Origin: a virus
Reading direction: 5' to 3' (one strand)
Virus record (IMG/VR): IMGVR_UViG_3300027987_000212
Span: 1-64,000 of that record
Length of the DNA stretch: 64,000 nt
Below the pieces are notes generated by a model. The model was not told the DNA's origin and made no database searches. It saw nothing but the letters and a program-made list of their open reading frames with translations. Shown here one piece after another: positions 11,090-32,334 of this stretch; the stretch's first letter is position 1, and each line of letters opens with the position of its first letter. A program made the translations under genes and the position numbers.

Positions 11090-11767
11090 TCACTCGCGTA
11101 TCTCTGCCATGCCTTTCTTCAGAGGAAGTTGGTAGCCAATGAATGGCACGCCAAGTTGTTCATTGGGAACCCAGTCTCGCAAGAACTCTGTAGGGTACTC
11201 ACCGGGAGTAGCGTCTCGCGCAAGTTCAGGCCCCCCATGCTGCTTTCGCCACTTCGCGTAGGCCCTCGGAGCAGTGCGGGCTTCCCTTGCCTGAAACTGA
11301 ACACCCGGCATCTTAGCCCACACATGCTTACCCTGTTCATCTGCTTGAGCTCTGAGCTTAGTGGCCCCCAGTTCTGCTGACGCACCTACGAGTGCCTTGA
11401 ACATCGCTGACCCGATGCCCCGCGCACGCATCTCGGGTCGAAGGTACATGGCGTCGCCTTCCACTGTGTACTTCCCCGATAGCCCTTTGTGGAAAGAAGC
11501 ATCTCCGGTACCGTAGGAGAAACCGTTTCGTGTGAAGATGTTCTTGCCCTCACGGTTCTTGGCACTGATGCGCACATCTGGGGCACCAAGACCAAACCAA
11601 GTAGGGACCGCCTTTACCTTCACACCCTGCAAGTCTGGGTGCAGCGCATCCGTGAAGTACTTGTCGAAAACGCGTTGAGTTTCTTGCACCCGTTCTGAGC
11701 GTTTGACGTCAGAGAGCCCACCTAGCTTGGCGACACCCTCTACGAATGCGCGAAAACTAGGGCGCAC
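11090..11767 (-). CDS. GNAT-family acetyltransferase-like protein
   Basis: YLRPEMRARGIGSAMF fits the acetyl-CoA-binding R/QxxGxG motif, followed by A...GK.VW. Confidence 0.65.
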   Translation of the reverse strand: MRPSFRAFVEGVAKLGGLSDVKRSERVQETQRVFDKYFTDALHPDLQGVKVKAVPTWFGLGAPDVRISAKNREGKNIFTRNGFSYGTGDASFHKGLSGKYTVEGDAMYLRPEMRARGIGSAMFKALVGASAELGATKLRAQADEQGKHVWAKMPGVQFQAREARTAPRAYAKWRKQHGGPELARDATPGEYPTEFLRDWVPNEQLGVPFIGYQLPLKKGMAEIRE

Positions 11768-11773
11768 TCGAAC

Positions 11774-14497
11774 TCACTGCTCCTGAAACGCTAGTGACTT
11801 CAAGCCAGCGAGGGTCTGCTCCGTGCACTTCACCGCACGCTCGAGAGCAGAGACCGGAATCGAGGACTGCCCCAAGCGCGCCGCCAAGAGCAACTCACAC
11901 ATCTTGCGCTGTGCCCCCTCGATTTCGGGCAAGTACGATACGAAGGTGCTGAGGTTCTCGGGGCTGAGGAACCCGAGGGACAGCACGGTGTCGACCGCCG
12001 TCGGGTCGGTGAGCACTGCGGCCTCTTTCCACAGGTTGGTACGTAGGGCCTGCGCCAATTCCACGTTCTGCCGTGCGTGCTCCATCACCGATGCACGCTG
12101 CTCCTCGAGCGGGATGATGCAGCGGGCGACCTTGATGGTCGTCGGCTTCTTGTCGACTATCGACCGCGCAAGCTTCTCGACCCCGTAGTCCCGGGGTACC
12201 CCGAGCGCACCGAGTAGGAACAGGGCTCCGTCGATGTTCGTGAACTCCCGCTCGGCCGCCGCCACCTTGGCCACCGGAGTCCCTTCGAAGCTGAACTGCC
12301 CCGAGCTGTCTCCCCGCACTACGACTTGAGCTTCCTTCTCCGGCATGGGCTCTGGCGTCTCCATGCTCTGCAGCGCTACAGCCTCAGTCCCCTCAGTTGA
12401 GGACCACTGCCAGTTCTCCGGAATCAACAACATTTCACCGTTGCCGATGACGTGCTGCACCCCGGGTTGCTTCGAGACGAGGGCCTGCCGACCATCGAAG
12501 ACCTCCGCCACGAACTGCTGCGGCTCTGCCACGTCGCCGGTGGGCGCCGGTGTCATGGAGCCCGTGATGGTCATCGGTACCGTTGCCTGCATCGTACCGT
12601 CCGCCCCAGGGCCGAAGAAGAACCCCGCACCCTCGAGTCGGGTACTGACCGGCAACTGCGTCGTCTGCCGCATGCGCTGTCCCACGATGTCGGCCTGGAT
12701 GGCCGTCCGCTCCCCATTGGTGAAGAGGGCCAGGGGAACCTGCTCGCCCGTGACATCCCACAAGTCCGGAATGACCACGCCAACGAGCGCTTCCCCGTCA
12801 TCCGTCTGCACCTGGTAGCTGCCAGCCACGTCGACCGGCGTCGGCAAGACCTGCGGAGCATCCCCGACGCCCTCCACCTCGTCGGCCATCGTCGCCGAGC
12901 CGGATGCGTCCGCCGCCAGGACGACCTTCTCTCCGAAGCGCAGGAGCGCCTCCTTGCGCGATAGGCGCTCCTCCCGTGGGTCCCAGCAAGCTGCATTGGC
13001 ACTCTTCACCAGGAACTCCGCAGAGCTCAGACGAACGAGCTGAGTCACCGACGGTGGCAACAGCGCCGCAAGCGTGGAAGCCACCTTCTCCGTAGGGATG
13101 GGGGTCACGTTGAGCACCACGCGCATCGCCGGTAGCAACGCGGTCGCATTCTTCTGCAATGCCGCCTCGTTGTCCCGTACGAATTGGTGGAACTCCTCAC
13201 AAGCGCGCACCCCCAGTGTCGGTGCGATGGCCTCGAGCAGCCGCCCGCCGCCGGAGGCATGCTTGGCGATGAACTCGTCGAGCAGCCCCGGGGCGTACCC
13301 ACCAGAGGCCTCCTTTTTGCCCCAGCGTCCCTCCCGCAGGTGCTGCGCCGTCTCTTCGAGTGCCTGCTCCGACGCCGTCTTCTCCCGACGCAATGCGCCC
13401 GCCAAGCCCCCGACCGCCGCTCCCCCAAGCGAACCGGCCAAACCACCCTTGTAGGCTGCGTCCAATCGATGCCCCCTGGGAGCCAACGCCGCCCCAGCCA
13501 ACGAACCGAGCACGTTTCCAGTACCACTACCTGTGAGCGCTCCGGTGAAGCCCTTCTGCACCCGAGACTCCTCCGCTACCTTCAAGGCCTCGAGCCCCGC
13601 AGTGAACCGCGCCGACGCGTCCTTGGCCAACGCCGCCCCACCTGCAGCGCCTACCGCAGTACCACCGACGGCACCACCCGCCACATGCCGTGCACGCCGA
13701 ACCGCATCTCGCTCCGCAGTGGCCTTGCCCGCAAACTCACGTGCCTTGCCGACATGTGCATCATGCGTCTTCGCGAAGAACTCTGGGCTGTTGAAGTGTT
13801 TTTGGTGCTTTGCCGTAGTCTCTGCCGCACGGTCGAACTTAGTAGCTGCACGTTCCAGTGTCCGAACCTTGCTCCCGCTGAGCAACTCCGCCCCGCGACG
13901 AGCTCCATGAGCAACAGTCTGAGCAAGGTTCGCCTCTTTGGCTAACCAATGCTCGAGTGCAGACCCCTCCTTTCCCATGCCGACATTGGTCATCACGCCA
14001 CCACCGCCAAAGCCCATGTTCTGGCGGTATGGAGGGTAGAGCTGTCCAATCATCGACATGTCGCCCGGCGTCATGCCTGTGACATCGAACATGGTGGGGC
14101 GAAACAAGGCCTCACGAAGACGCTCTTCCGTCAACGGCAGCATCGTTGAATCAACCGTAACGAGAATGTCGAATGGCATCAACTTACCATCACTGATGAC
14201 CACCGGAAGTCGCACGGTCTGAATACCAGCCGCCTGCAGCGCGTCGGGACTCGTACCTAGTTGTGCCTCAGTCTGGTTGCTGACCTCGACTGCGCCGAAG
14301 CCGTACCCTTGTTCACCATCCACGCGTTCCATGACCACATGCGGCGTGAAGTCCGAAATGTAAGGAACTTGCTTGTACAGCTCCTGCAGAATCTCTTGCG
14401 GCCAAGAGTTGGGGTCTTCTGGCAGAGCTACTTCCGCAGCAGTCTTCTCGAAAACCAACTCGGGCGGCGTGAGGAACAGCGGTTCATGGTGTTGCAT
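11774..14497 (-). CDS. large probable head/virion protein with many K-x-A motifs and glycine-zipper inserts
   Basis: 907 aa; EKTAA, AKEAN, AKDAS, EKTAS, KKEAS, AKHAS, EKVAS, EKEAQ, WKEAA; two GxxxG-rich segments; AGGAG RBS. Confidence 0.7.
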   Translation of the reverse strand: MQHHEPLFLTPPELVFEKTAAEVALPEDPNSWPQEILQELYKQVPYISDFTPHVVMERVDGEQGYGFGAVEVSNQTEAQLGTSPDALQAAGIQTVRLPVVISDGKLMPFDILVTVDSTMLPLTEERLREALFRPTMFDVTGMTPGDMSMIGQLYPPYRQNMGFGGGGVMTNVGMGKEGSALEHWLAKEANLAQTVAHGARRGAELLSGSKVRTLERAATKFDRAAETTAKHQKHFNSPEFFAKTHDAHVGKAREFAGKATAERDAVRRARHVAGGAVGGTAVGAAGGAALAKDASARFTAGLEALKVAEESRVQKGFTGALTGSGTGNVLGSLAGAALAPRGHRLDAAYKGGLAGSLGGAAVGGLAGALRREKTASEQALEETAQHLREGRWGKKEASGGYAPGLLDEFIAKHASGGGRLLEAIAPTLGVRACEEFHQFVRDNEAALQKNATALLPAMRVVLNVTPIPTEKVASTLAALLPPSVTQLVRLSSAEFLVKSANAACWDPREERLSRKEALLRFGEKVVLAADASGSATMADEVEGVGDAPQVLPTPVDVAGSYQVQTDDGEALVGVVIPDLWDVTGEQVPLALFTNGERTAIQADIVGQRMRQTTQLPVSTRLEGAGFFFGPGADGTMQATVPMTITGSMTPAPTGDVAEPQQFVAEVFDGRQALVSKQPGVQHVIGNGEMLLIPENWQWSSTEGTEAVALQSMETPEPMPEKEAQVVVRGDSSGQFSFEGTPVAKVAAAEREFTNIDGALFLLGALGVPRDYGVEKLARSIVDKKPTTIKVARCIIPLEEQRASVMEHARQNVELAQALRTNLWKEAAVLTDPTAVDTVLSLGFLSPENLSTFVSYLPEIEGAQRKMCELLLAARLGQSSIPVSALERAVKCTEQTLAGLKSLAFQEQ

Positions 14498-14505
14498 GCA
14501 AACTC

Positions 14506-15153
14506 CTATGTCGTAAGGATAATCCCCATTGCTCCGTATACTGAAGCACCCTTGGTTACTAGGATGACTCCCGAGGCAGGTTCAGCTGGTCCAATACTGT
14601 TGCCTCCGTAGGAGATACCTGAGGAGAACTTGGAGGCAACCAACGCACCAATCGAAGAGAGCGGGGTGTTGTCTGTGATGCCATCGAACGAGAGAGCAAT
14701 CGCGGGACCTGCGCTCAAAGCCGTCGCAAAGCCTGTGACTGCTTGGATTGCGGGGGCTTTGACCGCTACAGCTGCGGCAATGAGCCCCTTCAACACACCA
14801 AGTTTGGCAGAGAGCGCACCAGCAAGTGCAGCTTGTGCACTAATTTGACTCGAAAGGGTCAGTTGTACCGGTGGCAGGGAGAGTGCCGCTTGCAACGAGG
14901 CTTGAAGTAGCCCGATGGAAGCCAGCGCAGCTTGCAGCGCAGCCAAGGGATTTCCTACTTGAAGTGCGAGGTTCGCTTGAAGGGTCAACGCAGAATTGAA
15001 CTGGATACCCAGGTCCACCTGCGCATTACCTAGACCTACACCAACAAGTGCATCGAGTTGTGCACTCAGGGGACCCACAAAGCCAACACTTGCCGCAGCT
15101 GCGACGTTCAGAGAACCCAGAGTTCCGCCTGCAACTTCTGTAACTGCAGCCAT
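14506..15153 (-). CDS. Ala/Leu/Gly-rich charge-poor virion protein
   Basis: 215 aa, no R/H/C/W, directly downstream of the spike-like gene. Confidence 0.75.
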   Translation of the reverse strand: MAAVTEVAGGTLGSLNVAAAASVGFVGPLSAQLDALVGVGLGNAQVDLGIQFNSALTLQANLALQVGNPLAALQAALASIGLLQASLQAALSLPPVQLTLSSQISAQAALAGALSAKLGVLKGLIAAAVAVKAPAIQAVTGFATALSAGPAIALSFDGITDNTPLSSIGALVASKFSSGISYGGNSIGPAEPASGVILVTKGASVYGAMGIILTT

Positions 15154-15154
15154 T

Positions 15155-16405: not shown

Positions 16406-19400
16406 TCAGTAATGATACCCCGGCACACCCTTGAGGTGGCCTAGTCCTGGTTTGCCGCTGTCTTTGCCTGTGTACCCGAACTCGGCGCCGTAGACCATGC
16501 CCGGTACCGGGTTGATTCCGTGCAAGTTGGTGCGCCCGCCCGTCGCAGCCGCCTCGAGTACGGTATCGCGCAAGTTCTTGTGCATCATCTTCGCCAGCCA
16601 GTCCTCTGTAGCATCGAGCGTCACCATGTTCACGCCCTTGAGTACTGGGGAGTGTTCTACAGGACGTTTGCCCTGGCTGACCAGGGTCTTGTTGAGGGCG
16701 CGCAGTCCCGGGGCGTTCGTGAAGATGCCCTTGACTAGTTCGCTGTCGCCCGGGTCCCGCACTTTCGTCACCTGCCCCATGGCGGCGACTACCGTCTCGA
16801 CATGCTGTCGTCGCATGTCTGTGCCCTTGGCCCCGCCGTAGATGCGGTGCAGCTCGTCCGTCAGGAAGTTCTGCACCTTTTCCATGTTGCCCGTCGCTTG
16901 GTACAGCCGGTGTGGGTTGAGGTTGGTTCGGTTTGGGTCGCTCAGGGGTTGGCCTGCCTCGACGCGCATCCCCACCTTCGGCGGCTGCCAGGGAACGAAG
17001 CCCGGGGCCTCTGCTGCTTTCGGTAGTAGTTCGTTCAGCGCGTTGCCCTTACGGTCGCGCCCCACGTGGTGCGTCTTGCCGCCAATCCAGACCTTCACGC
17101 CAGTCGAGTCCTTCTCGACCTTCTCGACCTTACCCGTAGTCCGGGCCAAGACCATCTCATCGGGGATGTTGTCAGGCAAATTGGTTAGCTGCTGCACACG
17201 TTCGAAAGCGTTAAGCAGCGACGAGTTGCCACCACGTACCCCGCCCGTGTGGAACGCCTTCAAGGTTAACTGCACGCTCCTCTCTCCCAAAGACTGAGCT
17301 GCTTGTATCCCCACATTCGTTCCCACCTCGTGTAACTGCCCACTCGGAGACAGACCCGCACACTTCTGGCATACCCCCGCATCGTGCTCACATTTGAGGG
17401 TGGAACGTACTACCGCCTTTCCGTGTTTCTTGGCTAGTCGCATCTGGTCGATGAGGTCGGGAGTGAGGGTAGTCCCGGCGGGTAGGTCTACGTTCTTGGC
17501 CTTGAAGGGCTGAGCGAGAATACGGTCATGGAGGACATTACTGGAGAGGGGTAGGGCCACCCCGCGATTCGTACCGCAATCAGGCCCTGCCACCACCATG
17601 TTCATGGCTGCTTGGACTAGCCCCTTGGAGAAGTACCCGGGCTCTTCTACCTCCTGCACCTTCTTGATGGAACCAGCGCGCGCACCATGCATCTGAGTCC
17701 AGTACCCGGCCACATCCAAACCCTCCGAGTACGAGCTAGTCACGGGGGTCTTGACGGGATTGCCTGCACCATCGTTGAGAACCATCGGCGCTAGTACCAT
17801 CTGCCGGTATTGGTCCACACTCGGCTTGACCCCGGCATGGAGCATGATGGCCAAGTTGGTGGGTTTGGTCTTCATCTTCTCGAGGTGCTCTTTGGTCATG
17901 CCCTCACTTGCTTCGGTCCACGCCTCGATGGTCCGTGCGTCCTTCTCCTTGCGTGACAAGGTAGTCTTCTCGACGGCCTTCACCATGGCCTGCGCTTTGT
18001 CGAGGTGCTTCTGGCGTACGGCGACGTCTGGTGTGAAATCGTCTAGACCAAGTGAATGAACTGGGACTGGGATGAAGTGGCGAGTCTCTTTGGCACGCTC
18101 GGCTGCTGCGATGACTTCGGGTGAGTTGTCCCCTCGCTTGACCACTGCGACAGCTCCCGAGGCAGCCCCATTGCCCAAGTCCTTGAGACGGTCTGCGGTA
18201 ACTGCAAACTCATCTCGGTGGTTCTTGGCAAGTCGCTCGAAGAGCTTGGTGATGCCGCCCTTGTCGATGACTTGGTCGTGCTTGGTGAGGATACCGTTAC
18301 GAAGTGGTTCGGGCACCGCTGCAGCTAGTAGAACACGCCCTGGAGTCGTGCGCACTCCACCGATGGTCGTGAGGTTGTTGACGGTGAGCTTGCCGGCCTT
18401 GACTGCCTCGAGTGCATCGCCCGGGGTCTTGTAGCTCCCCTTCTTCTCCCCGTCGATTCGAGAGAGCTTGTAGAGCCCTAGTGCGCTCTCGAGAGTGGGC
18501 GTGTACATGACCCCTCCGGAGGCCACGTTGTAGAGGTTGTTCGAGGGCCGCATTCGCTGCGCTTCTTCTACCGCCTCCCGCGAGATGGGGACGTACGCAC
18601 TCATGGCATCACCGTCGAAGTCGGCGTTGAAGCCACCCGTTACTAGGGGGTGAATTTGGATGGCCTTGCCGGGGGCTAGTCGAGGGGTGAAAGCCTGTAC
18701 CGAGTGGGCATGTAGCGCGGGGTCGCGCTTGAGTAGTACTGGCCTCTCTTTGAAGACACTCTCTAGTGCGCGCCACACGGCCGGCGTCTTCTTGTCTACT
18801 AGCTCACGGGCCGATAAGGCGGTCGGGGCCGCCCCATTTGCGACTAGCTTCTCCACGACAAAAGGCTTGTACATCGTGAGCGCCTGCTCGTGGGGTAGCC
18901 CAACTTCGTCTAGCCCAAGTGCGGGTTCGGGCACGATGACGGAACGCATCGTGAGGTCTTGCTTGCGGTTGAGCAACACCTTCTGGAGGTACCCCTTCTT
19001 CGGTGAAGAGCTAGTTGCGGTTGAGCCTGCAATCTGTGCAAGGAGGCCTTGCGGCATCGAACCACCAACCACACTGCGTGGGTCCTTGCTGGGGGTGTGC
19101 ACCCCTTGGATGGCAGCCACGGCATCGTACATGCTAGCGCGGAAGTCCTTCTTGCGCTGGTCCGTGAGCTGGTCGAGCAGCGAGGGTGGGTTCTCTGCCA
19201 CCATACTGCCCAAGTCGCTGTACAGGCGATTGACATCCTCCCACTTGGCAGAGCCGTCGGGGAGTAGCGATGGCGTGCGCATGATGGGTGGCATCACCGG
19301 GATGTTCTGCAGCGTGTACGCCTCGACTGGCTTGAGCCCCGTCTCCTTGAGCGCGCGCAGGTACTTCACCTTCTTGATGAGCGCGTCCATCGCCGGTGGG

Positions 19401-22400
19401 TTGCCCTTCTTCTTACCCTTGGCGGTGTACTGCTGCTCAGGTACGGTCATCGCCGCCAAGGCCTTTTCGTGTTGAGCCAGGTCTTTCTCCACATCGATGC
19501 CCTCGAGCATCTTTCGGAAGGCGAGACCGCCCGTCACCGAGCCCTCTGTATCGAGAGGCACGAATTTGCCATCCTTCCATGCACGCTCGCCCGTCGCCAC
19601 CCCGCGGTAGTCCTCCTCAGTCAACCCCAACAACTTGCGCACAGGTACCTCGAACACCGGATTGACTACGGGTTCTGGGAGTTCGATGTGCGTCCACTTC
19701 TTGCCGCCCAGCCCACCAGTAAGTCGCGGGTCGAAGAGCCCACCCGGCTTCGGCTTGAGCGTACCCGTGTTCGGGTCCACCTTCGAGTACGTGTGGTCAC
19801 CCGGGTGTACGAGCTTGCCGCTGCTCATCTCGAGCACCTGCTTATCCGTCAGCGGCGTGAGTTGAATCTCGTTACCCTTCTTCTCGAGGTTGATACCTGC
19901 GCCGCGCAGCATGTCCTCGAACTTGCGGTACGAGAACGTGGGCTTGGGTACTGGCAGTGGTCGCCCTTCCACAATGGCTGTCCACGCATTGATGTGCTGG
20001 GACGGGTAGGGGCGACTAGGCTCGAGCAGTTCTCGGGGACCCTCGCTCTTGAACGTCTGCATCTCCCGGATATTGGCCTTGGCACCATGCGTGAGAAGTG
20101 TAACGAGCCCATAGGGGCCCATCGACTGCCCACCACTCTTTCCGCCCTGTGAGGGCAGCAACGTGGACTGCTCGTAGCCTTCCCCTTCACCACCCATACC
20201 CGAGCGCGCTGCCGTCTTCTTGTCGACCTGGTGGACGAGCTTGAGGATGTGCTGCTCACCAACGAGCGCCTTACCCATCTTCAATCCCGTCTCAGGGTCG
20301 AAGAGCTCCTCTTGGTCAGTGAGACCGTGCTTCTTCAAGTCTGACTTGACCTTCTCCACCAACGACTGCCGCTCGAAGCTGTCGACCACGTATGGCTTTC
20401 CCGTCTTGCGCGCAATCTTGCTGGCAGCAGTCTCGAGCACCTGTCCTGTGTTCATGCGACCGGGCACGCCTGACGGATTGAGCGCCACGTCGATGGGCTT
20501 GCCGTCAGCTGTGCGTGGCATCTTGTCGTCATCCACGATGAGCGTAACCACGCCCTTGTTGCCGTACCGCCCCGCCAGCTTGTCCGCAACCTGCATAGGC
20601 TCCACAGACTTGACGTGAACGCGCACCTCACCTTTCTTGCCACGGTAGACATCCACCACCTCACCCGGTTGGTCCCCATCCCACGTCAGCGAGCTATTGG
20701 TGTGCACACCCAAAAGCACCTTGCGCATGGCATTACCCTCGAGCCTGTTCTTGAACCGGTAAGGGTTGGCCGCCAACACCAGCGGGTCTCCGGGGTCAAC
20801 CTTTTGCCCCACACGAACTACACCCCCTTCATCCAACTTGGAGTACTGAGTCTTCGTGTACGCCTCCGGATGGTGCATCTGGAACTTGCTGGGTGCAGTG
20901 ATAGCGTCTGGGCTGAGTTGCGTCGTTGGCTTGTGTAGGTGCTCACTAGCCAAGCGCTCTGCAGCACTCCTACTGATGACCACGCCGTCCTCGAAGTTGT
21001 ACCCCTTGTAGGGAATGTACGCGACGCGCAGATTGGTACCGAGCGCGAGCTCTCCCTTCTGGGTGAAGTTCGTGTCAGCTATGTGCTGTCCGGCAGCAAC
21101 AGCATCACCCACCTTCACCGTGGGCGTGGAGTGCAGCATGCTCTTCTTGTCGTTGAGTGGGTAGTGGTTGTAGAGGCTCACCTTACTCACGCTGCCGTCT
21201 GCTGCACGTACCTCAATGTAGTTGGGCGTGACGGCAGTTACTTTACCTCCCTTGAGTGCTACATGGCTCGTGTTACGTCCTATGACTTGCTCCCACGACT
21301 TGGATGAGTCGTCCTCCGAACCTGTAGCTACTTGGACGAGCGGCGCTTCTCTACGCTTGAGGGAGATGGACTGCTCGATGTGCTGGTCTGCGTACGTCGC
21401 ACGATTACCGGAGACAGTACTGAGAAAGGGGATGAGGTTCGTAGTGACGTTGAAGAACTGCGAAGGGTGCCTAGCGATGTACTGCACACTATTCGCTGGC
21501 ACATCCGTGAGCTCATTGCCCTTCGCCGACGCCTTGACTGTCTTACCCAAGAATGAAGGCTTCCCCCGCTTCCACTCTACTTGGTCGGGCATAGCTACCA
21601 CCGAATCAGCAAAGACGCGCGGATTGACTAGCTCATACTTGTTCGACTTGACGTTGAACAACGTGATGCGCGGCTCATCCCCCACTTTGGTCACACCTAG
21701 CGGCATCCGTAGGGTCACCCCAGTCTTGTCATTCTCTGGTGTGCGTACGGGGTCCAAGAACCCTAGATGCGAGGGGTTTACCAGCTTCAAGCCCACCATC
21801 GTCTTGAGCTCTTCATCGCTCTGAATTCCACCAGAACCCATGGACGTTGTCTGCGACGCACTAGCTAGCATCTCCACTGGGTTGATTTGGTCAGCTTGGC
21901 GTGCTGCCGCATTCCTGGAGAAGGCTTGCTGAATGGGCCGATTGAACATGTCGTACTTCAACACCTCCCGTACGCTGGTAGCCCGCGAAAGCTTGCCCAT
22001 CACACGTTTGCGGATGCTACGCTTGTTCACCGAGTTGTTGTAGAAGTCCTGGATGTAGTCACCCGTCGAACGTAGTACTTTGAATTCGAGAGAATCCCGG
22101 TCATCCTCAGGTGCACCCGCTTGGACATCCAACATTCTCTTCGTCGCGCGCAGGAAGGTGTCCCCATCCACTGAAGTGGCGGCTTTACCGAGTGTCTTGG
22201 CCGTAACCTCGGGGCGCAACTGCACCTCACCCATCTTCTGCACGAAGTACTTGGCTGCTTCCTCCTGGTTGGGTGGCGCAGTCCTTCGGTCTGCTCGGTA
22301 GAACCGCTCGAGTGCTGTAGATGCGTGCGAGGCACCCTTGTTCGCCTGCAAGATGTCCTTTCCCCAGACCTTTTCAAGAGAATCGTCGTCGACACCGAGC

Positions 22401-22912: not shown

Positions 22913-22918
22913 CTAGCC

Positions 22919-22973: not shown

Positions 22974-22992
22974 ACCTTGAAGGAGGCTTAGC

Positions 22993-23769: not shown

Positions 23770-23771
23770 GA
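23762..23771 (+). promoter_or_regulatory. candidate phage promoter element (GGCGATAAGA)
   Basis: Overlaps the stop of gene 23200, upstream of gene 23801. Confidence 0.35.
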
Positions 23772-23800
23772 ACCAAGGACACTACTACCGACGAGTAGCC

Positions 23801-24397
23801 ATGGGACAAACTAACTGGGAAGACGACATGAGTAAGACAGGTTACCGTTGCCCATTCGAGGAAGAGCACATCCACTACGCAGAAGAGGTGGTGCTATTCG
23901 AGGTACGCATCGTCAAAGCAGTGCAAGGAAAGGTGGAGTCTCTGCACGTAATGAACGACGCACAGACCACCTTCCGCTACCCACCAATATTCGTCCTGTA
24001 CGATGGCTGGGAGAAAATGGACGAACAACTGCGGCAAGTAGTCGAAGACCTGGAACCCGTGAGAGAACCACACGAGCTCATCCGGTGTGAGTACTGTGGA
24101 AGCAGTATCTGCGAAGGTGAGGTCTACCTGTTGGCAACGATGGGGGCAATCAACCGGTCGCGGCGTATGCCCAACGGCGTCCACGCGGGCAACACCTTCG
24201 AGGATAGGGATTCTCGTCCTACGATAGCTTGCATCGCTTGCGCACTACTCCTGCACCAAGAGGTGCACGCCCTGTGGGGCACGCCCTTGAAGCAGTGGAA
24301 AGAATGCGAAGAAGGGACTACTGGACGCTGTTGGCGCGGAGGTTGTGGCGCTATGCCACAATCTTGCCAACTCACGACTAGACCACACTCAACCTAA
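23801..24397 (+). CDS. Cys-rich probable metal-binding protein
   Basis: CPF..EH, CEYCGSSIC, CIAC, C...CWRGGC. Confidence 0.8.
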   Translation: MGQTNWEDDMSKTGYRCPFEEEHIHYAEEVVLFEVRIVKAVQGKVESLHVMNDAQTTFRYPPIFVLYDGWEKMDEQLRQVVEDLEPVREPHELIRCEYCGSSICEGEVYLLATMGAINRSRRMPNGVHAGNTFEDRDSRPTIACIACALLLHQEVHALWGTPLKQWKECEEGTTGRCWRGGCGAMPQSCQLTTRPHST

Positions 24398-24414
24398 GCA
24401 GCACTAGGAGCAAC

Positions 24415-26972: not shown

Positions 26973-27049
26973 CAACGAAGATACGAACCAGCGTACCACC
27001 CGACGGCATACCGGCACCAAACCAGCCGCCGAAGCGCGCTGCATGATGG

Positions 27050-27072
27050 ACGAGGGGGCAACCCCTCGTTTT
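27050..27072 (+). terminator. intrinsic terminator after the MoxR-VWA operon
   Basis: ACGAGGGG-GCAA-CCCCTCGT followed by TTT. Confidence 0.7.
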
Positions 27073-27081
27073 AGCCCCGCG

Positions 27082-29067
27082 TCACACCGTAGCAGCCGCT
27101 CGACGTGGTGGCAGCTTGTTTGGTAGCGGAGTCATGTTGACCTGGGTCGCCGCCTCACCGGCAGCACCTAGCCCAGCGACTCCCGCAGGCTGGGACTTCT
27201 GCATCTCTCTCGCAAACTGCACTACGAGTTGCGCCAACTCGGGGTTCTGCGACTGTAGGTTCTGGATGACTTGCTCATGATACTCGGGGGGCATCGCGAG
27301 TAGCTGCTGAGCCAAGCTCTGTGCCAAGTCGACGATGGACATGCCCGCCTGCCCCGGCTGACCCTGCCGCGCCGTCTGCCCTCCGCCCCCCAGTTGGTTG
27401 GTCATGTCCTGGCTCAAGCTCAACGCGCTGGTCATATCCGGGGAGATACCGCCCTCGGGGCCCCCAGGCTCCCCAGGCGCATTACCCGCGGTAGCCGCTG
27501 CTTGTAGCGTCTCATTCATCTTGGCTTGTGCCTTGGCCATGATGAGCTGAGCTTCTGCCTGAATCTTGGCTAGAGCCACTTGCTGCCCCTTGGCTGCCTC
27601 GAACCGCTGAGCAGTCTCGGCAAGCATCAATTGGTCTTCATCGGCTTGGTCCAAGTCGATGTCAGCTAGGAGCGTCGTGTCAGATATCTTTTGTGCCTGG
27701 TTGAGCTGGAACAAGTAGGCCTTACGCTGGATGTCATCCGCCATTTTGAATGGCTTGAAGCGAATCTTCACCCGAGGCCAACCCATGTACGAGCACACCA
27801 TCTGCGCTACCCAGTTGGCTTGCTGTCGCTGCCGAAGAATGTAGTTGAGGAACGAGTTCTCCAGCATCCTCATCGAAACGTTGCTACCGGAGTAACTCAA
27901 CCCTCCGTAGATGAATTCACGAGGGACACCTAACCCAGCCAGAATCTGGTCACTGATGGCCTGCATCTCAGGAGTCAACAGCAGTGCGCGCCCATCGCCC
28001 CCGATAGTCTGGTTGCCGATAGGAATGGGCAGGATGGGGATGTAGTTGTTGTCCAGCCGCCAGCGCGCAATCTCTGCAGCCACGTGTTCACGCCAACTTG
28101 TGAGGTCGACGGTAGTGTACGGGTCGCTCGAACCAGAACCCGCCTGAGGAAACACGACGCGTAGCGGTACTATGTGCTCCGCGAGGATAGCCTCATTGGC
28201 CTTCTTCATCAGCTGCAAGTAAAACGTGTCCTTCAGGACCGGCATCACCATAGGGATGCCCCAGCCACGGTCTTGCTGCGCCAATGTCGGGCGCTTCATG
28301 TGGAAGAAGTTGTCCTTACTGAACACCACTCCCTTGTTCTCGCGTATCGCTTGAATGAAGACTTGCGGTATTCCCTCTACCGCTTCTTTCTTCCCGATGA
28401 GCACGTCGTTCCGCACCGTCTGAGGGATGACGTAGAAGTACGTGGACTCGCCGGTGACCTCGTTGTACGAGACCTCCACATGCTCACAGTTCCAACGAAT
28501 CAAACGAATGCCACTCGCATTGCGGTAGAAGTAGTCCTTGGCTTCTGCATCGCCCACCTGGTGGCACCTTGGGCAGGTGAGTCGGAACGTGTTGTTGGTG
28601 AACAGCCAATACTGTCGAATCTTGTCGGCTCGCTCTTGTAGCCCACAAGATGTGCACCGCAGGTACTTCTTGAAGGGGAAGCCGAGACTACTCATGCTGT
28701 TCCCGTAGCAGTGGTAGTCCAGACCGCACTCCACCTGGTAGCTTCGGTAGTTCAGGTGGTCATGAAAGTACTCGTCAACGCGCTCCCGCACACGTCGGTC
28801 GGGATGCTCCACCACCAAGTCAGTGATGGGATACTCTGCGCACTTGAAGATGGCGGCATTGATGAGCGGGTTGGTCAGGCAGTAGTAGCGACACCAGCGA
28901 AAGAGCTGCTTGACCGTAGCGGGCAAGTAGGTGTGCGCGATGTCGAAGTACGGCGAGGGGTAGTTCACCCCATTGGCTAGGCTGCCCTGAATACGCCCGC
29001 GCGAAGGGGCAAAGCGAAGAGCAGACGAGGCTCCCGCGCCGAACGAGAAGTTGCCGGGGATACTCAT
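27082..29067 (-). CDS. portal protein with Zn-ribbon insertion and Gln/Gly-rich tail
   Basis: NPLINAAIFKCAEYP, GWGIPMVMPVL and ILAGLGVPREFI...SYSGSNVSMRML match portal patterns; inserted CTSC...CPRC. Confidence 0.7.
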   Translation of the reverse strand: MSIPGNFSFGAGASSALRFAPSRGRIQGSLANGVNYPSPYFDIAHTYLPATVKQLFRWCRYYCLTNPLINAAIFKCAEYPITDLVVEHPDRRVRERVDEYFHDHLNYRSYQVECGLDYHCYGNSMSSLGFPFKKYLRCTSCGLQERADKIRQYWLFTNNTFRLTCPRCHQVGDAEAKDYFYRNASGIRLIRWNCEHVEVSYNEVTGESTYFYVIPQTVRNDVLIGKKEAVEGIPQVFIQAIRENKGVVFSKDNFFHMKRPTLAQQDRGWGIPMVMPVLKDTFYLQLMKKANEAILAEHIVPLRVVFPQAGSGSSDPYTTVDLTSWREHVAAEIARWRLDNNYIPILPIPIGNQTIGGDGRALLLTPEMQAISDQILAGLGVPREFIYGGLSYSGSNVSMRMLENSFLNYILRQRQQANWVAQMVCSYMGWPRVKIRFKPFKMADDIQRKAYLFQLNQAQKISDTTLLADIDLDQADEDQLMLAETAQRFEAAKGQQVALAKIQAEAQLIMAKAQAKMNETLQAAATAGNAPGEPGGPEGGISPDMTSALSLSQDMTNQLGGGGQTARQGQPGQAGMSIVDLAQSLAQQLLAMPPEYHEQVIQNLQSQNPELAQLVVQFAREMQKSQPAGVAGLGAAGEAATQVNMTPLPNKLPPRRAAATV

Positions 29068-30122
29068 GAGAACGCCTCACTGTCGATGTTGCCGGTAGTC
29101 CGGTCGGAGTATGTCCGCTCAGCCGGTACCGCCGCGGAGCCCTCGGCGACCAACGAAGCACTACTGTGCGCAGGTGACGTCTGGTGTGCCAGCCGTCGGC
29201 GAGCCTTGTCCCCCACCTTCCCCACCAAACCCCCAAGTACGCCAGCTACGGGTGCAGCAACTAGCGTAGCTGCCGTCGGAAGCGGCCCAGCCATCAACGG
29301 CAACGACGTCCCCACAGCCTCCCCAACGCGCTCGAGCCTTCCCTTCGAACCGTTGTCAGACCCTCGCGCAGCACCCAGCGCTTGAACCCCTGTCCCGCCG
29401 TACACCAATGCGCGCATGCCCGGACTAGTCGAGTGCCACTGCTCTCCAAATCCAGCCTTCAAGGCATCAACGGGGGAGCTACGCAGGGCTCGCGCGTACC
29501 CAGGCAAACTCGTGAGCCCCATGTTCTCAGCCTTCACCGCTGCCTCGTGGGCTTTGGCTGCCCTGTGAAGGCCCTTCGTAGCGCCAGACACCCCCTGCCC
29601 GGCACCCCGCGCCTTTCGCAGAGCATCAGCGGCCGAAACCAGCTCTCGTGCGCTCGCGTCTCCACCCCCGCCGATAGCACGTAAGCCCTTTTGTGGCAAC
29701 CAGCCGGTCAAGCCATGTACCTGCCGCTGTCCGAAGCGCGCGCCAGCGCCCAGACCTGGTGCCCGCAGAAGCGTTTCCGCAGCCCCTGGAGCTGCCGCAC
29801 CTGCCGCGGTACCCACCAAACCGCCCACAGCTCCGCCACGCACGGCGCCCCGCACACCGCTGTCCAACGCCTGTAGCGCCGCATCCCCCACACCTGCCCC
29901 CTGCCGTCGCGCCGTCGCGTAACCCTGCACGCCTCCGCCGACCGCCCCCAACCCCGCCCCGGCCAAAGCTCCCGCACCCAAGCCACTACCAGCACCCCAC
30001 ACGCCACGACGTAGGCCCGGAGAGGTTGCCAAGCGTTTGGCTGTCGCCAAAAGAGCGGCACCCCCTGCCTGCTTCACCAACGATTGGCTGAACCCTTCAA
30101 TGAACTCAACCGACAACGTCAT
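29064..30122 (-). CDS. Gly/Ala-rich probable virion protein with glycine zippers
   Basis: N-terminal FIEGFSQSLVKQAG motif; GAGSGLGAGALAGAGLGAVGG and GAVRGGAVGGLVG segments. Confidence 0.7.
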   Translation of the reverse strand: MTLSVEFIEGFSQSLVKQAGGAALLATAKRLATSPGLRRGVWGAGSGLGAGALAGAGLGAVGGGVQGYATARRQGAGVGDAALQALDSGVRGAVRGGAVGGLVGTAAGAAAPGAAETLLRAPGLGAGARFGQRQVHGLTGWLPQKGLRAIGGGGDASARELVSAADALRKARGAGQGVSGATKGLHRAAKAHEAAVKAENMGLTSLPGYARALRSSPVDALKAGFGEQWHSTSPGMRALVYGGTGVQALGAARGSDNGSKGRLERVGEAVGTSLPLMAGPLPTAATLVAAPVAGVLGGLVGKVGDKARRRLAHQTSPAHSSASLVAEGSAAVPAERTYSDRTTGNIDSEAFS

Positions 30123-30985
30123 CGTAGTACCGCCGATTGCCGAAGAAATCGACTACGGCTGTCTTCTAGCTCTCGATGAATGGAGAGTAGTCGCCGCAGT
30201 TGCTCATCCTCTACCGTAGCACGGGTAGGGGAGGTACCGGCTACCGCCTGTGGCCAACGTCGCATCACCTCAGCACAATCCACGACCAAGTCATGTGTAT
30301 CGATGGTGATGAAATCTGCAGGAGGGATAGTGCAAAGAATACCATCGAGCTTCCAAGCTATCGCCAGGAAAGCCTTGACCTCCTCTGACCACTCAACGTC
30401 CTGTCGTACCCTGTTGAAGAGGTCAATGGCTACCAGACTCTGAGCAGCCGTTGGCGCCTGCATGACATCGAAGTCTGGGAGCACTCCCGTCAAGGCCATA
30501 CAGCACCAGGTAAACACCTCCCACTCCGTCCAAGGTGAGGTAGCTAGATGCAGCGTCCGCACTGCCTGAAGCTTGTGCAGGTTCAACTCACTCACCTCGG
30601 ACGTACTAAAGTCCCGAGGCAGTGCGACTGCCAACGTCTCAGGCTCCCAGTAGAACCACTCCGGCCCATACCGCCTGAGAAGCAGTATGTCCAAAATCAG
30701 CGGATGGGTATCTGGACGCTGGAAGAGCCCAGACGTACTTGCCGTCTTCTCCTCGACTTCTTCCGTGGGCTCCTCATCACTTTCGGTAGTCTCGATGAGC
30801 TCAGTGGTTCCCTCGAGTTCATCGACATCCCCCTCATCGTCCTCCAGACCCACGGCGGGCATCCTCGCTACTGCTTCCTTCAACGTCTCAGTAGTAGCAT
30901 CTCGAGACAGCCCGCGCAGGGCCTGAAGGAAGCTCTCTTCAGGAGTCACAGCACGCTCATGCAGATGTTGGGTCTCGTCCAGCAT
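30119..30985 (-). CDS. hypothetical probable virion protein
   Basis: 288 aa; acidic linker ending EEKTAS, then a globular domain. Confidence 0.8.
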   Translation of the reverse strand: MLDETQHLHERAVTPEESFLQALRGLSRDATTETLKEAVARMPAVGLEDDEGDVDELEGTTELIETTESDEEPTEEVEEKTASTSGLFQRPDTHPLILDILLLRRYGPEWFYWEPETLAVALPRDFSTSEVSELNLHKLQAVRTLHLATSPWTEWEVFTWCCMALTGVLPDFDVMQAPTAAQSLVAIDLFNRVRQDVEWSEEVKAFLAIAWKLDGILCTIPPADFITIDTHDLVVDCAEVMRRWPQAVAGTSPTRATVEDEQLRRLLSIHRELEDSRSRFLRQSAVLR

Positions 30986-31844
30986 TGTCGGTAGCTAGTC
31001 TAGCTACCACCTTTTTCTGCGGCGCGGGGAGGGAATTGAAGATGCTTACCGGGTCTTTCTGGAACTCTCGAGCGAAGTCCTCGCCCCACACGGAAGCAAC
31101 CGCGCGGAATCCGCGCTTGGCGTACGCGTGTAACTGCTCCGAAGTCAGAAACTCGTTGCTCAGTAGGACTGACCCTTTTGGGGTGTCCGCCATGGACGTC
31201 TGCGCCGCCGTCTTCTCTCCGTAAACGGAGTAGTAGGGGTCGACTAGTGCCCGGTCGTACAGCTCACTCAACCCGGCAAGTTTGTCGTACTCCTCGATGA
31301 GGCAACACAGACTCTCTGGGTCGAGCGCACCTTCCTGCACCAGCACACTCGCCGTCTTTACCGCACCCAAAGCAGCCAAGTACATCTCGTCCGTGGTAAG
31401 CCGCTCCCGTGCCTCGAGGGCCGCGCTCAACTCTACTGCAGGTGCGACACCCTCCGACCCGTACTTGCGTACATCCGCAGAAACAGGGATACCCAAGGCA
31501 CCCGCACGCTTGACCAAGTTCACGCAGTACTCACGTCGGTGCACCGGAGCAAACGACCCCCGGTATTCCTCGAAGTAAGCTGCCGCCGTCTTGACCTGCT
31601 CATAGCTGTCCAAGGGGTAGCGCGAACAACTGGGCAGCGCATAGTGCTGCGCATCCCGCAGGGAAGCAAGATGCGGCGCCTCTCCCTCGTCCAAGTTCAC
31701 GTAGGGGGTCACCGACGCCTCCTTGCGCACGGTATACGTGGGTGCCGTGGTCACCTTCTCTTTGGGTGGCGGAGCCCCGACAGGTGCTATGGGGGTACCT
31801 GACACCTCCGCACCCTTCAACAAGTACTGCTCGAGCTCGCTCAT
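30957..31844 (-). CDS. probable head protein, DUF6582-like domain, many K-x-A motifs (start ATG 31844, 295 aa)
   Basis: YALP..RYPLDSYEQVKTAAAYF...RREYCVNLVKRAGALGI; AAGGAG RBS. Confidence 0.7.
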   Translation of the reverse strand: MSELEQYLLKGAEVSGTPIAPVGAPPPKEKVTTAPTYTVRKEASVTPYVNLDEGEAPHLASLRDAQHYALPSCSRYPLDSYEQVKTAAAYFEEYRGSFAPVHRREYCVNLVKRAGALGIPVSADVRKYGSEGVAPAVELSAALEARERLTTDEMYLAALGAVKTASVLVQEGALDPESLCCLIEEYDKLAGLSELYDRALVDPYYSVYGEKTAAQTSMADTPKGSVLLSNEFLTSEQLHAYAKRGFRAVASVWGEDFAREFQKDPVSIFNSLPAPQKKVVARLATDNAGRDPTSA

Positions 31845-31845
31845 T

Positions 31846-32334
31846 TCAAACTCCTTGCTGCGCCCGCCGCGCTTTGAGCTCAGCAGGAGTGAGGACAATA
31901 CCACCTGCACCCTTTGCCGCCTGAAGATTCGCCTTCGTCTCGCGCACAGCGCCGGGCCCCATCAATGCCGCGTTCACAAGACCGATAGTACCAAGAGCCA
32001 CCTTAGTGAGAAGTTCCGGCGCCTGAACGTCGTACCAATCGCAGCCCACGAGGAGGTTAGCCGCAGCTAGCTTCTGTACTTCGAGCGGTAGTCGGTGACC
32101 TGTGCGCAAGAAGTAAGCAACGCTCAGCTTCGTCTCATCCTCCGTCGCCATTGCGAACTTCCGCATCTGCGACTTTCCGGTGTCCACCAGCGCAAACAAG
32201 TCATCCGGTAAATAGCTGCGCTCCTCCGACGATAAGAGCGTTGCGTGCTTGACTAGCCCTTCCTCTGGAGTGCCCGTCAACAGCGCCCCTCCATCATCGT
32301 AGTAGTCCAGAATCAATCCACTGAGCTTGTCCAT
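31846..32334 (-). CDS. probable head protein, DUF6582-like domain (start ATG 32334, 162 aa)
   Basis: LSSEERSYLPDDLFAL...RKFAM...TKLSVAYF; GGAGG RBS. Confidence 0.7.
   Translation of the reverse strand: MDKLSGLILDYYDDGGALLTGTPEEGLVKHATLLSSEERSYLPDDLFALVDTGKSQMRKFAMATEDETKLSVAYFLRTGHRLPLEVQKLAAANLLVGCDWYDVQAPELLTKVALGTIGLVNAALMGPGAVRETKANLQAAKGAGGIVLTPAELKARRAQQGV

Follow-up and report, generated by a model that had tools for sequence, protein, structure and literature searches.

A Lys-x-Ala motif in phage head proteins as the likely cutting signal of a previously unclassified prohead protease

The head proteins of a large uncultivated phage (185-kb genome, 237 predicted proteins, including the window of 64,000 nucleotides) share the short motif phi-x-K-x-A-(S/A/G), which is probably the cleavage motif of the phage's own prohead protease and would represent a new specificity in a T4/phiKZ-type system. 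As in systems of that type, it recurs across capsid, scaffold and internal proteins, both in N-terminal propeptides and at the borders of domains. The data support K-x-A as a selected functional signal of head proteins, and its most likely role is that of the cutting signal of a previously unclassified protease encoded in the same genome. No published description of the motif in phage heads was found in the literature.

Enrichment of K-x-A in head proteins

Against circularity, the head set was picked by position only and comprised 19 proteins (7,022 aa). When all residue pairs with gaps of 0-3 were scanned in this set, with expectations corrected for the composition of each protein, K-x-A ranked first in 1,420 tests (81 occurrences versus 39.3 expected, p 3.8e-9), whereas the controls were flat, both for the block of tail and other structural genes (79 vs 76.1 expected) and for the plus-strand genes (69 vs 71.1). 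The minus-strand block of the window contains 17 copies of the strict pattern K[TEVQHDL][AG][SAG], versus 3.2 expected from within-protein shuffles (z 7.8); the density of 4.95 per 1000 aa, compared with 0.84 per 1000 aa in the rest of the genome, agrees with the original prediction that the motif is commoner in head proteins. Seven copies of KTAS were found genome-wide (0.9 expected), every one in a head-module protein. Ranking of the 237 predicted proteins by the share of Lys residues followed by x-Ala placed a 907-aa protein at the top (16 of 36, p 5e-6), followed by two proteins of the terminase-capsid block (12 of 20 and 14 of 28) and, at rank 4, the 317/295-aa protein (7 of 17); scaffold-like proteins carry 8-14 copies each.

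The logo pooled from 30 sites consists of a hydrophobic residue at -2, Lys, a free position, Ala (0.75), then Ser, Ala or Gly (0.32, 0.28 and 0.11, respectively, at position +3), then Ala. It contains no conserved acidic position, unlike the motifs of T4 and phiKZ with their Glu at P1. Its location is strongly biased: in ten head proteins, including the major capsid protein, K-x-A is found at residues 14-41, behind a short helix. Placement of the motif near N-termini and at domain borders is supported by indirect, convergent evidence.

Motif-bearing genes of the minus-strand block

All genes described in this section lie on the minus strand, and every motif instance quoted in the original prediction for the 907, 317/295, 288, 352, 203/162 and 225-aa proteins is present; the examples VKTAM and LTHLDKLG, assigned to an InPase, also exist, albeit beyond the range of 11,090 to 32,334 given for the system, near 49.7 kb of the minus strand. 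The K-x-A-richest protein of the genome, the 907-aa protein (11774-14497), gave no match in Pfam, PHROG or NCBIfam. In about 70 relatives its gene is located directly upstream of the head-module 306-aa, 155-aa and TerL genes, and its 260 homologues (662-917 aa) carry a median of eight K-x-A-[SAGT] each. Two conserved parts of the protein, an N-domain of residues 19-176 and a C-terminal region, enclose a hypervariable linker (about 177-449). Site 18, F-E-K-T-A-A (14435-14446), is of the N-terminal propeptide type, with Lys conserved at 0.99 and Ala/Gly at 0.84 in 69 homologues, and site 176, G-K-E-G-S (13961-13972; Lys 0.99), marks the end of the N-domain; the segment 18-176 measures 157-163 aa in all homologues and is almost devoid of internal motifs. 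The following segment, 176-373, spans 197 aa here versus a median of 12 aa in relatives, and holds a Gly/Ala-rich, lineage-specific insert (residues about 190-370; 13388-13930) with K-x-A copies of its own (LAKDAS, LKVA), which corresponds to 91-99% gaps in relatives and is glycine-zipper-like by Atlas structure rows. Site 373, R-E-K-T-A-S (13370-13381), lies within the hypervariable linker and retains Lys at 0.72, with a flank identity of 0.07 and 66% gap cells. Sites 471 (E-K-V-A-S) and 498 (V-K-S-A-N; 12995-13087 for both) show Lys at 1.00 and Ala at 0.99-1.00, with a flank identity of 0.29 and a variable middle residue. Sites 744, 775 and 824 of the C-terminal region (12017-12268) are equally strict (Lys 1.00, Ala/Gly 0.96-1.00), and cleavage there is less certain because the segments around them are length-invariant. 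As had been anticipated for indels, length variation in this family is concentrated between conserved motif sites, but the inserts in the 907-aa protein are Gly/Ala-rich low-complexity linkers in which no foreign module is recognisable.

The block encodes five further motif carriers. Directly downstream of the 907-aa gene lies that of a GNAT-like acetyltransferase of 225 aa (11090-11767; weak Pfam and PHROG GNAT matches), absent from this locus in relatives, whose N-terminal F-V-E-G-V-A-K-L-G-G (11717-11728) makes it a candidate tagged cargo; its Lys14 is invariant in the only two homologues found, one of which reads F-F-E-T-L-T-K-E-A-S. The 352-aa Gly/Ala-rich protein (29064-30122), encoded directly upstream of the portal gene, begins with an N-terminal helix followed by L-V-K-Q-A-G (30063-30074), and its relatives keep phi-x-K-x-A/G at the matching N-terminal place (LVKEAL, LTKEAL, LEKLGM). 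In the 288-aa protein (30119-30985), E-E-K-T-A-S (30737-30748) is situated at the border of an acidic, variable N-region and a conserved domain, with K-T/L-S/A there in three of four relatives. The 295-aa protein (30957-31844; 317 aa, 30957-31910, from an upstream GTG) has five strict sites, among them R-K-E-A-S near the N-terminus; its relatives keep sites of the DKLAG and GEKTAA types, and all have a K-T/V-G/A-A/S site in the variable N-region. Finally, the 162-aa protein (31846-32334; 203 aa from an upstream GTG) contains G-L-V-K-H-A-T at residue 29 (32239-32250) and T-K-V-A-L-G (31993-32004), both conserved in relatives, as is the start M-D/E-K-L-S-G-L. Two other genes of the block provide context rather than motif: the fused beta/beta' RNA polymerase of 2168 aa (16406-22912; Pfam Rpb2 and Rpb1 domains) has only two strict motifs, the chance level, and the portal protein of 661 aa (27082-29067; tblastn match to the portals annotated in Salmonella phage Arash and Bacillus phage G) lacks the strict motif. 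The Arash homologues of the fused polymerase are the most abundant proteins of its virion (PMC10585845).

Conservation of the sites in relatives

In 60-80 metagenomic relatives (IMG/VR), the motif Lys and Ala are about 90-100% conserved at a flank identity of 0.13-0.55 and with a variable middle residue, and this holds inside disordered, indel-rich, non-helical linkers too, as well as for the sites at residues 14-41 of the ten head proteins. In particular, Lys conservation among these relatives reaches 0.93-1.00 at sites 30, 301, 324 and 509 of the 545-aa protein described below, 0.88-0.98 at six sites of a 430-aa protein, 0.95 at site 146 of a 422-aa protein, 0.96 at site 27 of a ferritin-like protein and 0.99-1.00 at seven sites of the 907-aa protein. 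A comparison across seven families gave a conservation of 0.59 for the Ala of K-x-A versus 0.32 for other Ala residues (p 1e-7). The capsid-protein site is not discriminating, since G, S or N frequently occupies its third motif position and conservation extends over the entire N-terminus. Enrichment, conservation and position of K-x-A are direct observations.

A candidate prohead protease

The original prediction expected a prohead protease elsewhere in the genome, and a 545-aa candidate is indeed encoded outside the window (genome positions 142432-144069, minus strand), between the terminase and major capsid genes; the gene order TerL, 430 aa, 185 aa, protease, 422 aa, capsid protein is found here and in about 70 relatives. 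Searches of the protein against Pfam, PHROG, NCBIfam and PDB sequences gave no match, and hhalign profile comparison with T4 gp21 returned a probability of 0.1. The model of residues 33-300 (pLDDT 82.5) aligned best with T4 gp21 in VIA-align (Z 8.6, rmsd 2.7 over 127 of 165 residues), while unrelated structures reached at most Z 6.2; the four herpesvirus proteases listed in all include those of varicella-zoster virus (Z 6.4), cytomegalovirus (Z 4.5) and KSHV (Z 3.7). The top three Foldseek matches were gp21 chains (probability 0.93-0.98), and language-model neighbours with a Pfam name include Peptidase_S77, S80 and S78 clusters (0.89-0.91), an unrelated peptide-synthetase cluster also reaching 0.91. 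His117, His118 and Ser174 are invariant in 33 homologues and probably are the catalytic residues: judged by sequence context, the putative His-Ser spacing is 56-57 versus 55 in T4 (His85, Ser140), and Ser174 lies in P-D-V-S-M versus P-G-V-S-S in gp21. Residues 33-300 are accordingly modelled as a predicted serine protease domain of the T4 gp21/herpesvirus-assemblin fold, an assignment based on fold, local motif resemblance and gene position, among which fold and synteny were observed directly. This domain continues into a fused helical C-terminal domain of about 245 aa.

Motif sites stand on both sides of the catalytic domain. Sites 30, 301, 319 and 324 fall in segments of pLDDT <50 flanking the folded domain, whereas sites 474 and 509, also invariant, are in confident helices or length-invariant segments. 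Many conserved copies in disordered linkers, together with copies exactly at both ends of the catalytic domain, form the pattern expected of autoprocessing sites.

The protease family comprises 2,750 cluster representatives; K-x-[AGS]-[SAGT] precedes the domain in 71 of 88 representatives with an intact N-terminus, at a fixed distance in 57 of those 71. One homologue is Bacillus phage G gp19 (tblastn E 8e-7; Foldseek E 7e-7), which is annotated as a head maturation protease (PMC12484599) and has LVKTAA before its catalytic domain and EKVAS and LLKIAS after it. Among syntenic head genes of cultured phages, Salmonella phage Arash gp220 and gp223 have 10 of 21 and 8 of 16 Lys residues in the motif and its capsid protein has LVKEAG at 27; in Vibrio phage D69, 0271 has 10 of 17 and the capsid protein LTKEAG at 27. 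The K-x-A tag is therefore testable in cultured Salmonella and Vibrio phages. The published Arash virion proteome is based on tryptic searches and includes no analysis of cleavage (PMC10585845), and its 'coverage' column is unusable, since it lists 100% with two peptides.

Proposed mechanism and alternative explanations

From these observations we infer cleavage at K-x-A, the bond cut and any targeting role. Head proteins would co-assemble into the prohead, perhaps helped by the short N-terminal amphipathic helix that precedes the first K-x-A. The protease would free itself at sites 30 and 301-324, remove propeptides of 14-41 residues from the capsid, 185-aa, 352-aa, 162-aa, 295-aa, 907-aa and ferritin-like proteins, and probably from the GNAT-like protein, and fragment the scaffold-like 430-aa and 422-aa proteins and the linker of the 907-aa protein. 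The cut would most likely follow Ala (P3 Lys, P2 free, P1 Ala, P1' small), the alternative being a cut after Lys. The original prediction gains indirect, convergent support in that K-x-A is a selected functional signal of head proteins. Several invariant copies, however, lie in helices modelled with confidence or in segments of invariant length (sites 474 and 509 of the protease; 744, 775 and 824 of the 907-aa protein) and may stay uncut and serve another purpose.

The most durable alternative, with a rather small share of the probability, is that K-x-A and its amphipathic helix form an uncut docking motif recruiting proteins into the prohead through the capsid shell, the scaffold or the protease C-terminal domain. 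In its favour are the strong concentration of sites at residues 14-41, after a short helix, in ten head proteins, the invariant sites in folded helices and the marking of would-be cargo enzymes (ferritin-like and GNAT-like). Against it stand the many conserved copies found within disordered linkers prone to indels and exactly at either end of the catalytic domain, which is the pattern of autoprocessing, and the 8-14 copies in scaffold-like proteins, which exceed what docking needs. Docking and cleavage are mutually compatible.

Modification or cross-linking of the motif Lys, for example by GNAT-like acetylation or an HK97-type isopeptide bond, is improbable: the conserved residue is a Lys and the GNAT-like gene adjoins the most motif-rich protein, yet relatives keep the motif without that gene at the locus, only two GNAT-like homologues were found, and three features would be left unexplained: an Ala at +2 no less strict than the Lys, a small residue at +3, and sites on either side of the protease domain. 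Just as improbable is cutting by a host protease. Host proteases do trim phage capsid proteins in known precedents, and the presumed bond, with small residues on its two sides, looks like many bacterial processing sites; against this, the motif is common to phages of very different hosts (Salmonella, Vibrio, the Bacillus group, soil metagenomes) and accompanies the phage protease family, whose members bear it themselves. Least likely of all is a functionless by-product of Lys/Ala/Glu-rich helical or coiled-coil scaffold sequence, since, even though the richest proteins are 13-19% Ala and partly helical, expectations were composition-corrected per protein, the head set shows no enrichment of helical patterns such as A-x-x-x-A, conservation of Lys and Ala greatly exceeds that of their flanks in non-helical linkers as well, and the site keeps a fixed position across relatives of the 2,750-cluster protease family.

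Under the preferred reading of K-x-A as a protease signal, the term 'polyprotein' is an overstatement: such a layout is recognisable in the 545-aa protein (protease and C-terminal domain) and in the 907-aa protein (N-domain, linker, C-region), but the inserts are low-complexity and the overall pattern resembles T4/phiKZ-type propeptide removal and scaffold degradation. The idea of a polyprotein of foreign modules is only partly supported. The related suggestion of enzymes tagged as cargo finds some support in the conserved site 27 of the ferritin-like protein, and at site 14 of the GNAT-like protein in two homologues only. It is conceivable, though doubtful, that the N-terminal helix and K-x-A constitute a portable 'load into capsid, then cut' tag for unrelated enzymes. 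If so, the ferritin-like, GNAT-like and glycine-zipper proteins would enter the host along with the DNA as cargo of the capsid and be processed by a gp21-fold protease that has exchanged a Glu rule for a Lys-x-Ala one, amounting to an encapsulin-like cargo system in a tailed phage, across thousands of protease clusters.

Comparison with known systems

T4 gp21, the best structural match to the catalytic domain, resembles the 545-aa protein in the order and spacing of the presumed catalytic His and Ser and in the P-x-V-S context. Both T4 L/I-x-E and K-x-A are three-residue signals with a free middle and a small residue next, K-x-A replacing Leu/Ile with Lys and Glu with Ala, and in both systems scaffold proteins carry several sites while capsid and internal proteins begin with short propeptides, their cleavage being putative here. 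The systems differ in that no sequence-profile similarity is detectable and that a helical C-terminal domain is fused here. A cut after Ala would reproduce the P3-x-P1 geometry of T4 L/I-x-E and phiKZ/SPN3US A-x-E. The proteases phiKZ gp175 and SPN3US gp245 (Peptidase_S80) recognize S/A/G-x-E or A-x-E (PMC10052503). Shared with the present phage are large size, a virion RNA polymerase, many internal head proteins, multiple motif copies in propeptide regions of several proteins and, presumably here too, Ser favoured at P1' and self-processing of the protease; P1 is Glu in phiKZ/SPN3US, whereas K-x-A requires no acidic residue, and the proteases belong to families of distinct sequence.

Herpesvirus assemblin pUL26 (Peptidase_S21; release and maturational sites) shares its fold with the catalytic domain and its layout with the whole protein, namely a protease domain, a site at its end and a scaffold-like C-terminal part, with K509 as a further site about 35 residues from the C-terminus. 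The assemblin sites of pseudorabies virus are YLQA-T and VQA-S (PMC4498786), which P1 Ala and P1' Ser/Thr would match if the cut follows Ala; P3 is an invariant Lys here versus Leu or Val two residues before Ala in the herpesvirus examples, and the 545-aa protease, unlike assemblin, would have an N-terminal propeptide of about 30 residues. Phage G gp19 belongs to the same family by sequence and fold and has K-x-A-[AS] flanking its catalytic domain, but is only 300 aa long, lacks the long C-terminal domain and serves a phage whose capsid protein has no K-x-A motif; no reported specificity for gp19 was found. The likeness to encapsulin cargo-loading peptides lies in a ferritin-like protein with a conserved terminal tag, encoded beside an HK97-fold shell protein; here, the tag is N-terminal, probably cleaved and of unrelated consensus, and the shell is the phage capsid.

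Gene organization of the head module

The window is taken from the start of one 185,327-bp contig, of which it covers the first 64 kb; the contig has the look of a large tailed phage. Among cultured phages, those nearest to it are Vibrio phages D69, D181 and D148 and Salmonella phage Arash (portal protein ~30% identity), Bacillus phage G being a remoter one. Two groups of minus-strand genes lie between window positions 11090 and 32334. The first encodes a GNAT-like protein (225 aa, 11090-11767), proteins of 907 aa (11774-14497), 215 aa (14506-15153) and 416 aa, and a fused beta/beta' RNA polymerase (2168 aa, 16406-22912); the second consists of the portal gene (661 aa) and, ahead of it, genes of 352 (29064-30122), 288, 295 (317) and 162 (203) aa. 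A second motif-rich block, also on the minus strand, was located at 132.8-145.9 kb of the genome, between the genes for the large terminase (TerL, 146638-148458) and the HK97-fold major capsid protein (138315-139433), in the order TerL, 430 aa, 185 aa, 545 aa (142432-144069), 422 aa and capsid protein, with a 616-aa ferritin-like protein (133615-135465) slightly beyond. In ~70 relatives, the RNA polymerase, 416-aa, 215-aa, 907-aa, 306-aa, 155-aa, TerL, 430-aa, 185-aa, 545-aa, 422-aa and capsid protein genes are arranged in this order, which makes the block in the window a part of the head module. In the present genome, ~47 kb including the GNAT-like gene separate the 907-aa gene from the rest of this module; this stretch (window 1-11774 plus genome 150039-185327) is inserted with respect to the ~70 relatives, where the 306-aa, 155-aa and TerL genes directly follow the 907-aa gene, and its GNAT-like gene has only two homologues in a collection of 5.8 billion proteins.

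Several genes of the window are unusual in their own right. The two RNA polymerase subunits are fused into one ORF within a head-associated gene block, and this protein has no K-x-A excess. Arash encodes the two subunits separately, as gp206 and gp216, and both products are among the most abundant virion proteins (PMC10585845); by analogy with these counterparts the fused enzyme is probably a packaged virion RNA polymerase. The 215-aa protein has hardly any charged residues, nearly its whole sequence being built from Ala, Gly, Leu, Ser, Val and Gln. It has no family match; a conserved counterpart (~40% identity) lies between the genes of 416 and 907 aa in 72 relatives. Finally, long ORFs overlap on opposite strands at 49559-50179 (minus) and 49202-50302 (plus), the former being the "InPase" protein of the original prediction (VKTAM, LTHLDKLG).

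Enrichment of the K-x-A motif in head proteins

The original prediction described a recurrent motif, K[TEVQHDL][AG][SAG], in the minus-strand proteins of the head region. All motif strings quoted there are present in these proteins, and the pattern is over-represented (17 occurrences against 3.2 expected from shuffled sequences, z 7.8) and six times as dense as elsewhere in the genome. Because this pattern had been defined after inspection of the proteins, unbiased scans of every residue pair separated by 0-3 positions (1,420 tests) were run on a head set fixed by gene position only. K-x-A was the top over-represented pair in this set (81 vs 39.3 expected, p 3.8e-9); neither the tail and other structural block (79 vs 76.1) nor the plus-strand genes (69 vs 71.1) had an excess of it. 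When all predicted proteins were ranked by the share of Lys residues followed by x-Ala, the 907-aa protein came first (16/36), followed by two proteins of another region and, in fourth place, the 317-aa protein of the window; the corresponding shares were 12/20 in the 430-aa and 14/28 in the 422-aa protein. A bias of the motif towards N-termini was found within the head proteins only, the genome-wide test over all 237 proteins being not significant.

GxxxG was the second most enriched pair pattern of the head set (97 vs 68.5). Gly/Ala-rich, glycine-zipper-like GxxxG stretches occur in the 352-aa protein (29064-30122, minus strand), in an insert of the 907-aa protein (13388-13930, minus strand) and in the ferritin-like protein, and such proteins may be membrane-active ejection proteins.

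Position and conservation of the sites

Counted from start codons supported by relatives, the first site has its Lys at residue 14 in the GNAT-like protein, 15 in both the capsid and the 185-aa protein, 17 in the 352-aa, 18 in the 907-aa, 27 in the ferritin-like and 29 in the 162-aa protein, 30 in the 545-aa protein, 36 in the 430-aa and 41 in the 295-aa protein, usually after a short amphipathic helix. The conservation of these and later sites was assessed in IMG/VR loci, 80 around homologues of the 545-aa protein and 79 around homologues of the 907-aa protein, with each gene family aligned; the latter loci were collected with an alignment query, a single-sequence query for related loci having returned none. 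At many sites Lys and Ala/Gly are conserved at 0.9-1.0, with a flank identity of 0.13-0.55 and a free middle residue. Such conserved sites are 30, 301, 324, 474 and 509 of the 545-aa protein, 36, 59, 86, 177, 208 and 290 of the 430-aa protein, 146 and 362 of the 422-aa protein, 27 of the ferritin-like protein, and 18, 176, 471, 498, 744, 775 and 824 of the 907-aa protein, in which sites 373 and 412 are also ~0.7 conserved within a nearly unalignable linker. In the four proteins whose genes precede that of the portal, the N-terminal and border sites are retained in the four available relatives. The terminase has a single K-x-A, which shows no conservation whatever. Across seven head families, the conservation of Ala in K-x-A was 0.59 against 0.32 for other Ala residues (p 1e-7), and the median conservation of motif Lys was 0.72 against 0.28. 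The pooled logo reads hydrophobic at -2, Lys, a free residue, Ala (0.75), Ser/Ala/Gly and Ala.

Sites 18 and 176 of the 907-aa family enclose an N-domain that measures 157-163 aa in every member and is essentially free of motifs inside, and nearly all length variation falls in the segments 176-373 (3-197 aa), 373-412 and 412-449, where additional motif copies are also frequent; a 180-residue Gly/Ala-rich stretch of the present protein is lineage-specific. An Atlas search with the 907-aa protein returned no usable relative, and the Atlas's own model has a pLDDT of 0.34. Since this variation lies between motif sites, the proposal that the motifs sit at domain borders and enclose variable inserts holds for the 907-aa protein; its further part, a polyprotein carrying foreign modules, is supported only in part, the inserts being low-complexity linkers with no recognisable foreign domains. 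Among the invariant sites, 474 and 509 of the 545-aa protein lie in confidently modelled helices, and some others in parts of the 907-aa protein whose length does not vary. Not every K-x-A copy need be a cut site, and the motif may have a docking role alongside cleavage.

The 616-aa head-module protein (L001:3615-5465 in its locus, minus strand, outside the window) has a Pfam ferritin-like domain at residues 54-173 (E 2e-8), a weak glycine-zipper match and the conserved site M-K-T-A-S (residue 27). It is a possible ferritin-like cargo of the capsid, which would recall encapsulin systems.

A candidate prohead protease

The original prediction called for a prohead protease elsewhere in the genome, and a candidate was found in the 545-aa protein, which is modelled with a gp21-like fold and encoded between the terminase and capsid genes. 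It has more than 1,000 metagenomic homologues at ~55% identity, on contigs of 185-200 kb, some of them interrupted by inteins. Its own sites include residue 30 (F-E-K-T-A-S) and residue 301 (T-K-T-A-S), on either side of the catalytic domain (residues 33-300). In an alignment of 33 homologues, Glu29, Lys30 and Ala32 are invariant, with T, V, L, I, C, S or F between Lys and Ala; the second site is retained within a linker rich in insertions and deletions, and His117, His118, Ser174 and other residues between the two sites are invariant. In the AlphaFold model, a folded domain is flanked by disordered segments, and sites 30, 301, 319 and 324 fall within these segments.

Modelled alone (pLDDT 82.5), this domain had gp21, the prohead protease of T4, as its best match among 48,161 PDB representatives (Z 8.6, rmsd 2.7 Å, 127/165 residues), with varicella-zoster virus protease at Z 6.4, the cytomegalovirus and KSHV proteases lower, and the best unrelated match at Z 6.2; these matches required the domain-only model, the whole 545-aa model giving weak fold matches only. 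Foldseek independently placed three gp21 chains on top. Ser174 lies in P-D-V-S-M, 56-57 residues past the invariant His pair, and T4 gp21 has His85 and Ser140 in P-G-V-S-S at a spacing of 55. Among the language-model neighbours with a Pfam name are Peptidase_S77, S80 and S78 clusters, together with one unrelated cluster, and Foldseek against viral models retrieved Bacillus phage G gp19 (E 7e-7), phiRSL1 and PaBG proteins, and numerous further proteins that bear the name prohead protease; gp19, which was also matched by tblastn (E 8e-7), is annotated as a head maturation protease (PMC12484599). No match was obtained in Pfam, PHROG, NCBIfam or a PDB sequence search, and hhalign of the family profile against T4 gp21 found nothing. 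The assignment is accordingly based on the fold, the position of the gene and a local resemblance in motif.

Many relatives have portal genes with large insertions (963-1108 aa vs 661 aa here; loci L010:237-3128, L011:6941-10225 and L012:7001-10327) and likewise interrupted protease genes (900-1700 aa, e.g. homologues P0057 and P0076), in which LAGLIDADG and Hint domains indicate intein-like elements. The phage studied here has neither insertion.

Distribution among phages

The catalytic-domain profile retrieved 2,750 cluster representatives at 50% identity, 974 with E < 1e-30, mostly from uncultivated phages of 185-200 kb. K-x-[AGS]-[SAGT] precedes the domain in 71 of the 88 representatives with an intact N-terminus, at a fixed distance in 57. 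In phage G gp19 the catalytic domain is preceded by L-V-K-T-A-A and followed by E-K-V-A-S and L-L-K-I-A-S; the capsid protein of this phage is without the motif. In syntenic genes of Arash, the fraction of Lys in K-x-A is 10/21 (gp220), 8/16 (gp223) and 7/13 (gp225), its protease homologue gp222 has L-T-K-Q-A-A at ~30, and its capsid protein gp226 has L-V-K-E-A-G at 27. The corresponding fractions in Vibrio phage D69 are 10/17 (0271) and 11/30 (0268), with L-T-K-E-A-G at residue 27 of the capsid protein.

The literature searched contained neither cleavage nor specificity data on the proteases of phage G, phiRSL1, PaBG and Arash. The Arash virion proteome paper lists virion proteins, with no protease or cleavage analysis and with a supplement organized by gene and not by peptide (PMC10585845), and its "coverage" values are implausible and hence unusable for judging processing. 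As Arash and D69 are both cultured and motif-bearing, the prediction is directly testable in both.

Proposed maturation system and comparison with known systems

To our knowledge, prohead proteases with a readable cleavage code are confined to a few phage groups, namely T4 (L/I-x-E) and phiKZ/SPN3US (A-x-E). The literature searched contained the T4, phiKZ and SPN3US motifs and no K-x-A prohead motif. The core of the original prediction, a Lys-x-Ala maturation signal read by a prohead protease, is well supported, if indirectly, by enrichment, conservation, fold and synteny, and the data are most simply read as a maturation system of the T4/phiKZ type whose specificity is new, with cleavage inferred. 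The protease would enter the prohead, free itself, and then trim N-terminal propeptides and degrade scaffold-like proteins at phi-x-K-x-A-(S/A/G), where phi is hydrophobic. We favour a scissile bond after the Ala, because K-x-A plus a small residue has the P3-x-P1 geometry of T4 L/I-x-E and SPN3US A-x-E, the latter followed by Ser (PMC10052503), because strictly small P1 and P1' residues match the herpesvirus sites YLQA-T and VQA-S (PMC4498786), and because a cut after Lys would give the unusual combination of a free P1' and a strict P2'.

Taken as a whole, the K-x-A system suggests a new specificity in a known kind of system, attached to a large unannotated protease family of ~2,750 clusters at 50% identity outside the coverage of Pfam, PHROGs and NCBIfam. 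If confirmed, it would make mature ends, scaffolds and packaged or ejected cargo predictable from sequence across the clade, and would offer a tag for putting foreign proteins into large capsids. Lys-x-Ala plus a small residue would be a third prohead code, chemically distinct from those of T4 and phiKZ/SPN3US. The layout of the protease resembles that of herpesvirus pUL26: a catalytic domain that ends with a predicted cut site is followed by a helical region of scaffold-like character, and another conserved predicted site, K509, lies ~35 residues from the C-terminus. The system, if confirmed, would represent a change of specificity inside the gp21/assemblin fold, with an Ala-Ser chemistry recalling that of herpesviruses.
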